Made by a program: the position numbers and the translations under genes
Part shown: one piece after another, positions 2,148 through 61,289 of the stretch
Layout: every line of letters begins with the position of its first letter
How positions within the stretch are numbered: the stretch's first letter is position 1
The notes under the pieces: model-generated
Told to the model about the DNA's origin: nothing
Databases searched by the model: none
What the model saw: the letters and a program-made list of their open reading frames with translations, nothing else
Source of the DNA: a virus
Lineage: Duplodnaviria > Heunggongvirae > Uroviricota > Caudoviricetes
Virus record (IMG/VR): IMGVR_UViG_3300003310_000099
Location: 106,295-170,294 of that record
DNA: 64,000 bases
Strand: one strand, 5' to 3'

Positions 2148-2525
2148 TCACTTCCTCTTGGAGAACGTATTCAATTTGCCATAGTCTTTACTAACTTTGA
2201 TTGCCTGGATAGAGACTATAACATCGAATTCGTCGTTTTCAAGACGAGTTTCCACAGAAATGTTGGTATTGTTGGTGGTGTCGATATATTGCCAGATTGC
2301 TGGCTCCCCACGCAGTTTATCCCAAGCTTTGTACCAAGCGCCAAGGGGAACAGCGGCTTTTAGCTTGTTCTTGTCGTCATGGAAATGAACTTCGCCATTA
2401 CTTTCATGAATGCGGAAACCGCCAAAGGTAGTGCCGCCTTCTTTTTTGTCTTTTTTTTCTACGGTCGTCTCACGTTCACCACCCATTTTCTTACCCCTTA
2501 GTTTGTTGAGTAGTTTTTTTAACAT
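2148..2525 (-). CDS. Hypothetical protein
   Basis: 125 aa ORF, operon-like spacing. Confidence 0.7.
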   Translation of the reverse strand: MLKKLLNKLRGKKMGGERETTVEKKDKKEGGTTFGGFRIHESNGEVHFHDDKNKLKAAVPLGAWYKAWDKLRGEPAIWQYIDTTNNTNISVETRLENDEFDVIVSIQAIKVSKDYGKLNTFSKRK

Positions 2526-2703
2526 TTTCCAATATCTTGTCTAGATTTAATGTTTGGCAAGCTGGGCATAGGTCAGCTTTATAGGTGCCGATATATCCAT
2601 TGGCAAGAGAATTGATTTCTATGGCTAACCAGCCTTCTTCATAAAAACCGTAATATCCATTATGGAGTTCACAGGATTTTTTACAAATCAAGCAGGTTGC
2701 CAT
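2491..2703 (-). CDS. Small Cys-containing hypothetical protein
   Basis: CLIC ... CPAC; 70 aa. Confidence 0.55.
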   Translation of the reverse strand: MATCLICKKSCELHNGYYGFYEEGWLAIEINSLANGYIGTYKADLCPACQTLNLDKILENVKKTTQQTKG

Positions 2704-2840
2704 ATTAAAAGTAGGGTAGGTAGGATTTTAACCTACTTCTTCTTCCTTATCGAGGAAGCCGTGTTATCTCGAAAGTAGTTTCCAGAGCCTATGTACACTT
2801 GGTTCTGGGCTTGCTTTTACACACCACTACCCCATAAAAT

Positions 2841-3082
2841 GTTGGTTCCCGTAGCCAGCCTTCTGTTTTATTCCTGCATTTATCTCATCTTTCGATGGGC
2901 AGTCTATTACGACACGCCAGCACCAACCCGACCCTCAGACGCCCCACTCACGGGCTAAGGTCTGTTTGGCTTGCACGGATTGTGGTACAAACGATACTTG
3001 CATTTCTGCTTTCTCTCCCACAGCGAGTGGATGTGGGCTGAACTTCCTCTAGCTTTACAGCCAGCGCAGGATCAGAACCAAC
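2841..3082 (-). ncRNA. rnpB: RNase P RNA, compact form with a strongly reduced specificity domain
   Basis: Manual folding of the minus strand. P1 GUUGGUUCU(3082-3074)/GGAACCAAC(2849-2841). P2 UCCUGC/GCAGGA. P3 CUGGCU-GUAA-AGCUAG. CR-I GAGGAAGUUCAGCC and CR-V ACAGAAGGCUGGCU form P4 with the universal bulged U. P5 CAC/GUG. P6 pseudoknot CACUCGC(3029-3023)/GUGAGUG(2951-2945, loop of P17 GCCC/GGGC). GCAAGCCAAACAG J5/15-P15; GGU in L15; CR-IV AGAUAAAUG. Confidence 0.9.
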
Positions 3083-3088
3083 AAGGTC

Positions 3089-3116
3089 ATCATAGCACGA
3101 ATTTGGCAGTTGTCAA
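3089..3116 (-). promoter_or_regulatory. Sigma70-like promoter driving the RNase P RNA
   Basis: TTGACA-N16(ends TGC)-TATGAT; predicted +1 about 7 nt downstream is G3082, the first base of P1. Confidence 0.75.
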
Positions 3117-3469
3117 GACTCCTTCACAACCTTCAAATCTGATTCATCAAGAGGGACTAAATTAAACCTTAAACGGCCATCCACCAATTCTGGGTCTAGA
3201 ATTAAATGAAAACTAAACCTTGTTTTAGCTTCCATTAATGAATCAAAAAGTTTCTTGTGATCCAAAACCTCTTGACAATATGCGTATTGGAACCCACCCC
3301 ACTTGGCCGCTTTGTCATATTTTTCTTTTGTGGAAAACAACGGTATCAAAATACCGTCATTACAACTGATCGCAACCAGTTGTTGTGTAGTTGGATTTAC
3401 AGGGAACCAAGCCCCCGTCAAATCTGACCGTATGAAAGTGTCTCCAATTTTTATCATGGTTGATACCAT
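3113..3469 (-). CDS. Hypothetical protein
   Basis: 118 aa ORF, overlaps the upstream gene. Confidence 0.65.
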   Translation of the reverse strand: MVSTMIKIGDTFIRSDLTGAWFPVNPTTQQLVAISCNDGILIPLFSTKEKYDKAAKWGGFQYAYCQEVLDHKKLFDSLMEAKTRFSFHLILDPELVDGRLRFNLVPLDESDLKVVKES

Positions 3470-3780
3470 ACCTCTGGATTGATCCTTCTTGCTACTCTGA
3501 GAGCTATAAGCTGCTGTGCCCGATGTACAGCATCTACAAATTCCTTATTGTCAGCGTCAGAGCGATTCTCCAAATTAGTAAAAAGACTGAAAGCTTCAAC
3601 CAACTTTTTTAGAATCTCTTGTTCTTGGACAGTGAGCTTGACACCAGCCAGAATATCAATTTCTGGTATTTTGATTTCTGGGAATTTATAACCCTCAGAT
3701 GGCGGTGTAAAATAAGGCCAATGTCCAGGCCAAATCGGATTTACACAACAACCTAAACAAACTGGCTGTTCTGTTGACAT
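3454..3780 (-). CDS. Hypothetical helical phage protein
   Basis: 108 aa; C-terminal helical hairpin EFVDAVHRAQQLIALRVARRINP. Confidence 0.7.
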   Translation of the reverse strand: MSTEQPVCLGCCVNPIWPGHWPYFTPPSEGYKFPEIKIPEIDILAGVKLTVQEQEILKKLVEAFSLFTNLENRSDADNKEFVDAVHRAQQLIALRVARRINPEVWYQP

Positions 3781-18193: not shown

Positions 18194-18265
18194 CTCAGCG
18201 TAGCCTATTGGCGAGGCACTTCCCTCATAAGGAAGCTTAAGTGAGTTCGATTCTCACCGCTGAGA
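18194..18265 (+). tRNA. tRNA with CAT anticodon (elongator Met or Ile2); CCA not encoded
   Basis: Acceptor CTCAGCG/CGCTGAG, D-stem GCCT/AGGC, anticodon arm CTTCC-CTCATAA-GGAAG, T-arm GTGAG-TTCGATT-CTCAC. Confidence 0.9.
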
Positions 18266-18368
18266 CTTTCCCGTTTCGGTTGTACGCAACCTATGTCTTC
18301 ACAAGTGTTTGCGTAGTGTCACTTTCTTTTACGGGTAGTAGTAATATATAAAGGAAACGGAGGTATTT

Positions 18369-61207: not shown

Positions 61208-61213
61208 TTGTAT

Positions 61214-61286
61214 GCTCTTGTAGCTCAATGGCAGAGCGACAGTCTCTAAAACTGATTGGTTGAGGGTTCGAGTCCCTCCAAGAGCG
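61214..61286 (+). tRNA. Amber suppressor tRNA, anticodon CTA (Trp-like body); CCA not encoded
   Basis: Acceptor GCTCTTG/CAAGAGC, G73; D-stem GCTC/GAGC; anticodon arm (A)CAGT-CTCTAAA-ACTG(A), CTA at 61246-61248; T-arm GAGGG-TTCGAGT-CCCTC. Confidence 0.85.
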
Positions 61287-61289
61287 TTT

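Follow-up and report, generated by a model that had tools for sequence, protein, structure and literature searches.

The RNA of RNase P belongs to the small number of universal ribozymes and is regarded as a cellular housekeeping gene; the M1 RNA of Escherichia coli is about 377 nt long and the smallest bacterial RNase P RNAs known are about 270–280 nt. The 64,000-nt stretch of DNA analyzed here (the window), which comprises bases 106295–170294 of a 373,404-bp virus record in IMG/VR (IMGVR_UViG_3300003310_000099; 41% GC, CheckV completeness estimate of 98%), carries a 244-nt sequence that is almost certainly the gene of a genuine RNase P RNA homolog. It represents a compact class in which a full bacterial-style catalytic domain (C-domain) is combined with a specificity domain (S-domain) cut to P7 and one hairpin. 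Its identification as a phage-encoded RNase P RNA in a first-pass annotation of the window is upheld by a full-length match to an Rfam model, by a covariance model of the family (R1), by compensatory changes among homologs, and by its phage-type neighbors, the proteins of the window matching phage families that include a gp32-like single-strand DNA-binding protein, tail-fiber-type proteins, and several PHROGs. Judged from its sequence features, the RNA is probably a working ribozyme that uses the RnpA protein of the host and matures the tRNAs of the phage without reading the tRNA elbow.

Loss of most of the S-domain has been described previously in the type T RNase P RNAs (Lai et al. 2010, reviewed in PMC3579882), which keep the C-domain, have a length of about 200 nt, and are active. 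They occur in the Thermoproteaceae only, have archaeal proteins, and are defined by three features, a P2 of 3 bp, a P5/P15 linker of 2 nt, and shortening of P15; P2 has 7 bp in bacteria and 6 in archaea, and a protein partner of type T RNAs that has not yet been identified is thought possible (PMC3579882). The C-domains of the E. coli and P. furiosus RNAs are catalytic alone, P6 (or a mimic of it) being important for this activity and P18 dispensable (PMC5839562). Among viruses, the RNase P-like RNA of camelpox virus, an orthopoxvirus, did not cleave pre-tRNA in vitro (PMC3001073), and it is the sole viral precedent found in a full-text literature search with little coverage of subscription journals. 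Within that scope, which included RNase P reviews, the P Finder paper, and papers on huge phages, no description of a phage-encoded RNase P RNA was found.

Architecture of the RNA

Scripted extraction from the sequence confirmed the elements and coordinates given in Table 1, including all of the catalytic elements named in the first-pass annotation (P1–P7 and P15, with the P6 pseudoknot to L17 and the bulged U of P4, and conserved regions (CR) IV and V). P4 crosses P2 in the RNA of the window, giving the pseudoknotted P1-P2-P3 core of RNase P RNA, and CR-IV (AGAUAAAUG, of the AGAUNAAUG type) leads into P2, as in the universal core. The minimum free energy of folding corresponds to a z-score of −2.5. 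P8–P14 and CR-II/III are absent, and in the alignment with the Rfam model RNaseP_arch most model positions for P7–P12 are deleted, in agreement with the earlier view that most of the S-domain is missing; the approximate figure of 32 nt enclosed by P7 proved to be exact. The GGU motif, which had been placed in L15, is present but occupies J16/15, on the 3′ side of the P15/P16 internal loop, the same position that it has in type A RNAs. This motif pairs with tRNA 3′ ends and, together with the A-rich J15/16, contacts the tRNA 3′ end and the cleavage site.

The catalytic domain is bacterial in appearance. Features shared with bacterial type A RNAs (E. coli M1 RNA, the product of rnpB; RF00010) are P1, the 7-bp P2, a simple P3 hairpin, P4 with a bulged U, P5, P6 formed between J5/7 and L17, a P15/P16 internal loop in which AAACA faces GGU, P17, hairpins at the position of P18 with a GNRA or GNRA-like loop, and CR-I, CR-IV, and CR-V. 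The phage RNA differs from type A in its length, in having 32 nt in place of P8–P14 and CR-II/III, in the CR-I sequence, which is GAGGAAGUUC and not GAGGAAAGUCC and results in a U-G pair following the bulge, and in being encoded by a phage in a genome with no detected rnpA. The absence of P8–P14 and CR-II/III and the silence of RF00010, which gave zero matches at the locus at E ≤ 10, rule out a regular type A identity.

The type T RNAs had been cited as a precedent, and this holds as an analogy in that both RNAs are without most of the S-domain, but the defining features of type T are not shared: P2 has 7 bp, the P5/P15 linker (CAA) has 3 nt, and the type T model, RF02357, has zero matches in the whole record at E ≤ 10. 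Type T identity is thereby ruled out, and the loss of the S-domain is parallel to that of type T, not shared with it. A functional parallel is with the engineered C-domain RNAs (E. coli CP RPR and P. furiosus; PMC5839562), whose retention of activity with P6 and without P18 matches the parts that the phage family keeps and varies, both P18-position hairpins occurring in roughly half of the homologs but missing from the compact ones (alignment A1, described below). However, the engineered C-domains are laboratory truncations with reduced efficiency, whereas the phage RNA is a natural form under selection.

Table 1. Positions in the window of the RNase P RNA gene, its structural elements, and adjacent features
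Feature	Position	Strand	Basis or remark
Miniature RNase P RNA gene, 244 nt, 51.6% GC	2840..3083	-	Rfam and family model R1 matches
P1, UGUUGGUUCU/GGAACCAACA	3083-3074 with 2849-2840	-	scripted extraction
P2, UCCUGCG/UGCAGGA, 7 bp	3071-3065 with 2878-2872	-	scripted extraction
P3 hairpin, GUAA loop	3064-3049	-	scripted extraction
CR-I, GAGGAAGUUC	3049-3040	-	invariant columns in alignment A1
P4, AG-U-UCAGCC/GGCUGGCU, bulged U	3044-3036 with 2860-2853	-	scripted extraction
P5, CAC/GUG	5′ strand 3035-3033; 3′ strand within 2920-2976	-	scripted extraction
P6 pseudoknot, 7 bp, J5/7 CACUCGC with L17 GUGAGUG	3029-3023 with 2951-2945	-	scripted extraction
P7, UGUGG/CCACA	3022-3018 with 2985-2981	-	scripted extraction
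S-domain remnant, exactly 32 nt inside P7, one GAAA-capped hairpin (3009-3000)	3017-2986	-	scripted extraction
P5/P15 linker (J5/15), CAA, 3 nt	within 2920-2976	-	scripted extraction
P15, GCC/GGU	within 2920-2976	-	scripted extraction
J15/16, AAACA	within 2920-2976	-	scripted extraction
P16, GACCUU/AGGGUC	within 2920-2976	-	scripted extraction
P17, GCCC/GGGC, loop GUGAGUG forms P6	within 2920-2976	-	scripted extraction
J16/15, GGGUU	2929-2925; GGU motif 2928-2926	-	GGT invariant in A1
P18-position hairpin 1, GUAAUA loop	2919-2898	-	peripheral, optional
P18-position hairpin 2, CAUC-GAAA-GAUG	2897-2886	-	peripheral, optional
CR-IV, AGAUAAAUG	2885-2877	-	invariant columns in A1
J2/4 and CR-V, AUAAAACAGAA	2871-2861	-	invariant columns in A1
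CR-V, ACAGAA	2866-2861	-	scripted extraction
Sigma-70-type promoter: -35 TTGACA (3116-3111), 16-nt spacer, extended -10 TGcTATGAT (3097-3089)	3089..3116	-	
Degenerate tRNA-like element, starting 6 nt past P1	2712..2833	-	fold and weak tRNA match, 17.5 bits
Hypothetical protein, 118 aa	3113..3469	-	upstream of RNA gene; not RnpA
Small protein, 70 aa, CxxC...CxxC	2491..2703	-	downstream of RNA gene

Homologs and Covariation

A blastn search matched 83 nt of LR756511.1, the 595-kb genome of an uncultured huge phage. The pattern AAAACAGAANNNNGGCTACGG matched 17 viral contigs, in 16 of which (11 unique sequences) GAGGAAGTTC is found 130–215 nt upstream of the match; this pattern is blind to complementarity, but the four free bases of the variable P4 pairs are perfectly complementary in 11 of the 11 unique matches. 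The pattern AGTATCGTTTGNACCACAAT, aimed at close relatives, had 0 matches in the viral contigs, and GAGGAAGTTC-N(140–170)-AAAACAGAA yielded 52 loci, about 45 of them chance matches in coding DNA without P4 complementarity that were used as negative controls. Two further patterns raised the total to 25 unique sequences, and it should be recognized that the homolog set (25–26 sequences) is a pattern-limited sample.

Alignment A1 was produced with MAFFT from 23 trimmed sequences, and the pairing in each helix was counted by column. RNAalifold recovered parts of P1, P2, P5, P15, and P16 from it, with compensatory changes in 20 of 25 pairs. P2 has 7 bp in 23 of 23 sequences, with 161 of 161 cells paired and 56 double changes, and P4 is complementary in 184 of 184 cells; pairing is 95.7% in P1, with 33 double changes, and 97.8% in P5, 95.2% in P16, and 91.3% in P15, the last two also showing compensatory changes. 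When the partner strand was slid by 1–2 columns as a control, pairing dropped to 10–73%. For P6, which has 22 distinct strand variants, the mean score of the J5/7 segment is 14.6 with the L17 of the same sequence versus 10.6 (standard deviation 2.6) with those of other sequences. In a model-fitted alignment of 26 sequences, 95.1% of the cells are paired versus 67.0% in shuffles, and the covariation score is 0.746 versus 0.220, a value that 0 of 500 shuffles reach; slid controls give 26–43%. This alignment is biased toward the R1 structure, and more weight is placed on the MAFFT counts and on the unbiased P4 result. The compensatory changes that the first-pass annotation had proposed to look for are thus present in P1, P2, P4, P5, P6, P15, and P16 over 23–26 homologs, and the nucleotides that are invariant over the 23 sequences (GAGGAAG-UC, GGU, AGA..AUG, and UAAAACAGAA) form the core.

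Close relatives of the window copy are soil and bioreactor metagenome contigs that are 90–95% alike and span positions 2650–3133. Their listed changes (in the RNA sense) at 2840 (A>G, P1), 3023 (C>U, P6), and 3007 (A>G, small hairpin) result in wobble pairs; these are the three of the four listed changes at paired sites that preserve pairing, and the fourth opens the terminal pair of P16. Two GNRA loops stay GNRA (GUAA to GCAA in P3 and GAAA to GCAA in P18-position hairpin 2), and the other listed changes affect linkers or the variable hairpin of the S-domain remnant. The view that the locus is a decaying, functionless remnant of a captured cellular rnpB would account for the lost S-domain and for the degenerate tRNA that is the next element downstream, but no fewer than 25 distinct sequences have this compact architecture, with compensatory changes and an invariant core, the promoter is near consensus, and, among the listed differences, the relatives diverge less within the RNA than in the flanks, most of the differences fitting the structure. 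This reading is already disfavored because of the conservation and appears extremely improbable.

The same covariation bears on a non-catalytic role, in which the RNA would act as a decoy or regulator by binding host RnpA or pre-tRNAs and would divert or inhibit host RNase P. At one time such a role was suggested for the RNase P-like RNA of orthopoxviruses, the camelpox form being inactive in vitro (PMC3001073), and the regions that bind RnpA (P2/P3 and CR-IV/V) are retained in the phage RNA. However, a decoy has no need for P4 with a bulged U, for P6, or for P15–P17 with the GGU motif, all of which are kept with covariation in diverged phages, and a phage with 58 tRNAs gains nothing from a block of RNase P; a decoy function is therefore distinctly unlikely. 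Unlike the camelpox RNA, which belongs to a eukaryotic virus and shows a loose structural similarity to RNase P RNA, the phage RNA retains the conserved core in full, with covariation.

Covariance Model Searches

The Rfam gathering scores for RNaseP_arch (RF00373), the type A model (RF00010), and the type T model (RF02357) are 84, 100, and 60 bits, respectively, and a search of the whole window at gathering thresholds reported two tRNAs only and no RNase P RNA. In E-value mode, RF00373 matches positions 2840–3083 over its full length (model 1–288) with 26.3 bits (E of 1.8e-5 in 1 kb; 1.6e-6 per genome). A 12-bit match of RF00010 elsewhere in the record (G000:177328–177391) was rejected as noise. 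The archaeal model probably scores best since fewer peripheral helices need to be deleted, and the CR-I variant and CR-V context that are common to the Micrarchaeota and Marsarchaeota RNAs may contribute to its lead.

Model R1 was built from 11 trimmed compact homologs in other viral contigs, with the window excluded. It matches the window at 2845–3079 (model positions 1–193) with 98.9 bits and an E-value of about 4e-26, the R1 E-values being rough because of a shortened calibration. Twelve held-out homologs score 63–110 bits over the full model length, except for a partial match in one contig (L066, 63 bits), and the chance loci score no more than 15 bits. One R1 copy per genome was found in four of four genomes: this phage, LR756511.1, a complete 469,617-bp phage with terminal repeats, and a 248-kb contig. 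Of the Rfam models suggested for a check in the first-pass annotation, RNaseP_arch gave a sub-threshold match and the type A and T models gave none; the type B model also had no match, and the match to R1 was strong. Similar behavior is seen in the homologs, five of which score 22–49 bits with Rfam RNase P models, whereas in a multi-locus Rfam search seven of 12 homolog loci, including that of LR756511.1, are without an RNase P match at E ≤ 0.1. LR756511.1 searched alone has no Rfam RNase P match at E ≤ 1, and its copy was accepted on covariation and an R1 score of 126 bits. With every Rfam model below threshold, such genes get missed.

In a pattern scan of genome contigs, the matches listed were mostly RNase P RNAs of Micrarchaeota and Marsarchaeota (L082–L201). 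These RNAs (RF00373; for example L104:5994–6229, 236 nt) resemble the phage RNA in size, in the CR-I variant GAGGAAG(C/U)UC (GAGGAAGCUC), and in the exact CR-V context AAAACAGAA-N4-GGCUACGG. Unlike the phage RNA, they keep the S-domain (CR-II/III) and are without P15–P17 and P6. The L104 RNA scores 106.5 bits with RF00373, above threshold, but 13.6 bits with R1, and other archaeal RNAs score no more than 19 bits with R1. These RNAs were rejected as members of the family on account of their different reduction and low R1 scores.

Two further loci found in these searches deserve mention. In L066 (L066:3810–4021, minus strand), GAGGAAG lies 16 nt past the CCA end of a tRNA, the 5′ strands of P1–P3 are seemingly gone, and R1 matches positions 15–160 plus a separate segment, 169–189; this may be a truncated or rearranged variant. 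A phage-type RNA with 64.8 bits is located in a 14-tRNA array in CAZIWB010000009.1 (L182:6720–6980, minus strand), a 203-kb contig of a metagenome-assembled genome assigned to the Cellvibrionaceae; the binning has probably joined a jumbo-phage contig, or a prophage, to what may be its host. In 30 genomes from the order of G003, no phage-type copy was present among the candidates scored (82 per genome).

tRNA Genes, Protein Partners, and Proposed Function

In the proposed function as a working ribozyme, the sigma-70-type promoter of the gene would drive transcription, cleavage at the tRNA-like element, which lies 6 nt downstream, would free the 3′ end of the RNA, and the RNA would assemble with host RnpA. 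The ribozyme would then trim the 5′ leaders off the closely packed tRNA precursors of the phage, with recognition involving little beyond the acceptor/T-stem stack and the 3′ end. The record contains 58 tRNA genes, most of them at 27–92 kb on the plus strand, and 56 of the 58 are without an encoded CCA; this fits the presence, outside the window, of a 508-aa open reading frame (ORF) of the PolyA_pol/CCA-adding enzyme family (54 and 41 bits; G000:C1:333410–333892, minus strand). In most relatives the RNase P RNA gene lies within a dense tRNA array, a location that is typical of the phage family but not defining, whereas the window copy is outside such an array, with the nearest tRNA genes about 5 kb and 15 kb away.

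This location is one of the points that bear on a retargeted ribozyme, which would be active but have as its main substrates not pre-tRNAs but mRNAs of the phage or the host, tRNA-like elements, or other structured RNAs, with possible roles in phage transcript processing or host shutdown. The S-domain, the source of tRNA specificity, is gone, the window copy is surrounded by replication-type genes, such as that for the gp32-like single-strand DNA-binding protein, rather than by tRNA genes, and a non-canonical tRNA-like element is directly downstream. However, the GGU motif and the A-rich J15/16 are invariant, the relatives are mostly within tRNA arrays, and the phage has 58 tRNAs that need processing, so that retargeting is improbable.

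With respect to the protein partner, the first-pass annotation saw no RnpA gene in the window, and the same is true of the whole 373-kb record, in which no RnpA domain was found and Rpp29 and Pop5 (PF01868 and PF01900) have no match. These results would also be expected if no host protein were used, the RNA being protein-free or having a phage cofactor in place of RnpA that has escaped recognition, and the suggestion of an unidentified partner has been made for type T too (PMC3579882). A candidate is the conserved 118-aa protein encoded just upstream, which is also encoded near the RNA in LR756511.1, but it has zero Pfam or PHROG matches and no RNA-binding signature, and in LR756511.1 another gene stands between the RNA and its homolog of this protein. 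Furthermore, protein-free activity requires unphysiological salt. Independence from host protein thus appears highly unlikely, and use of host RnpA is the preferred arrangement.

Several considerations weigh against a working pre-tRNA-processing ribozyme. All Rfam scores are far under gathering (26.3 versus 84 bits for RF00373), and RF00010, RF00011, and RF02357 match nothing at the locus, the whole record having been searched. The covariation counts come partly from sequences that were chosen for P4 complementarity and from the model-fitted alignment. Isolated C-domains catalyze poorly without protein and high Mg2+. Finally, the nearest tRNA gene is about 5 kb away from the window copy, and about 17 kb separate this copy from the end of the main tRNA run; its connection with tRNA processing is for this reason less strong than that of the relatives.

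A more far-reaching proposal, that the RNA forms an “elbow-blind” RNase P that is largely host-independent and handles substrates that the host enzyme processes poorly, is tentative and, in our estimation, rather unlikely. If it were true, the substrates would be packed CCA-less pre-tRNAs and tRNA-like elements, including the 3′-end signal of the ribozyme itself, and the tRNA program of the phage would be freed from host RNase P RNA, perhaps under host RNA shutoff or tRNA-targeting defenses. The ribozyme gene would then be a mobile viral auxiliary function and the family, after type T, a second independent natural experiment on the minimal RNA of RNase P.

A family of RNase P RNAs carried by large phages would add a ribozyme to the translation genes of huge phages (tRNAs, tmRNA, and CCA-adding enzyme), and a natural, selected, C-domain-only enzyme of bacterial style would bear on the role of the S-domain and on the minimal RNA for catalysis and RnpA binding; compact ribozymes of about 190–250 nt would be useful for structural and engineering work. 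What the window copy adds is a promoter of its own, a position outside a tRNA array, and a tRNA-like element downstream, and its analysis adds the explicit type T tests and the comparison with Micrarchaeota.

In another viral contig, a tmRNA gene (97 bits; L010:1261–1644, minus strand) lies about 1.2 kb from a miniature RNase P RNA, which suggests that phages of this kind cluster several translation-related RNA genes.

Promoter and 3′ Flank

The predicted promoter agrees with the consensus at 11 of 12 positions, has a TG ahead of the −10 element, and is the best site within 2400–3500. The start predicted from it, at about 3083–3081, coincides with the first bases of P1, as the first-pass annotation had stated. 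No intrinsic terminator was found 3′ of the RNA on the same strand. The tRNA-like element that follows P1 is not called by ARAGORN, but it has a 7-bp acceptor stem (GGGGUAG/CUACCCU), a D-stem (GUGU/ACAC) enclosing a 56-nt loop, an anticodon arm (CUUCC-UCGAUAA-GGAAG), and a T-arm (GUAGG-UUAAAAU-CCUAC). The metagenomic relatives have a canonical anticodon loop, CUGAUAA (GAU, Ile-type), and in them both of the listed changes in the 5′ strand of the acceptor stem (2833 G>A and 2828 A>G, RNA sense) preserve pairing. In homologs, a true tRNA begins 4–10 nt past P1 of the RNA. We infer that the element is a relic of the tRNA-array arrangement that acts as an RNase P signal releasing the 3′ end of the ribozyme, and it may set the position of that end. 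With its own promoter and a possible 3′-end signal, the window copy is convenient for expression and end mapping.

Genomic Neighborhood

The RNA gene lies in an ORF-free gap of 409 bp (2704–3112), close to the 400 bp given at first. The 118-aa protein encoded upstream resembles a protein of LR756511.1 (L001:1914–2240, plus strand) when the translations are compared by eye; in both phages a hypothetical protein of 108–118 aa with the motif PLF(S/T)..EKY..AA.WGGF is thus encoded upstream of the RNase P RNA. The 70-aa CxxC...CxxC protein on the other side has no informative family match, is not kept beside the RNA in LR756511.1, and has no link to the RNA. A tRNA-Met gene with the anticodon CAT occupies 18194–18266. 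At the far end of the window, a tRNA gene at 61213–61287 (plus strand) has the anticodon CUA (an amber suppressor) and is labeled tRNA-Pyl by ARAGORN; the ORFs of the genome are normal in code 11.

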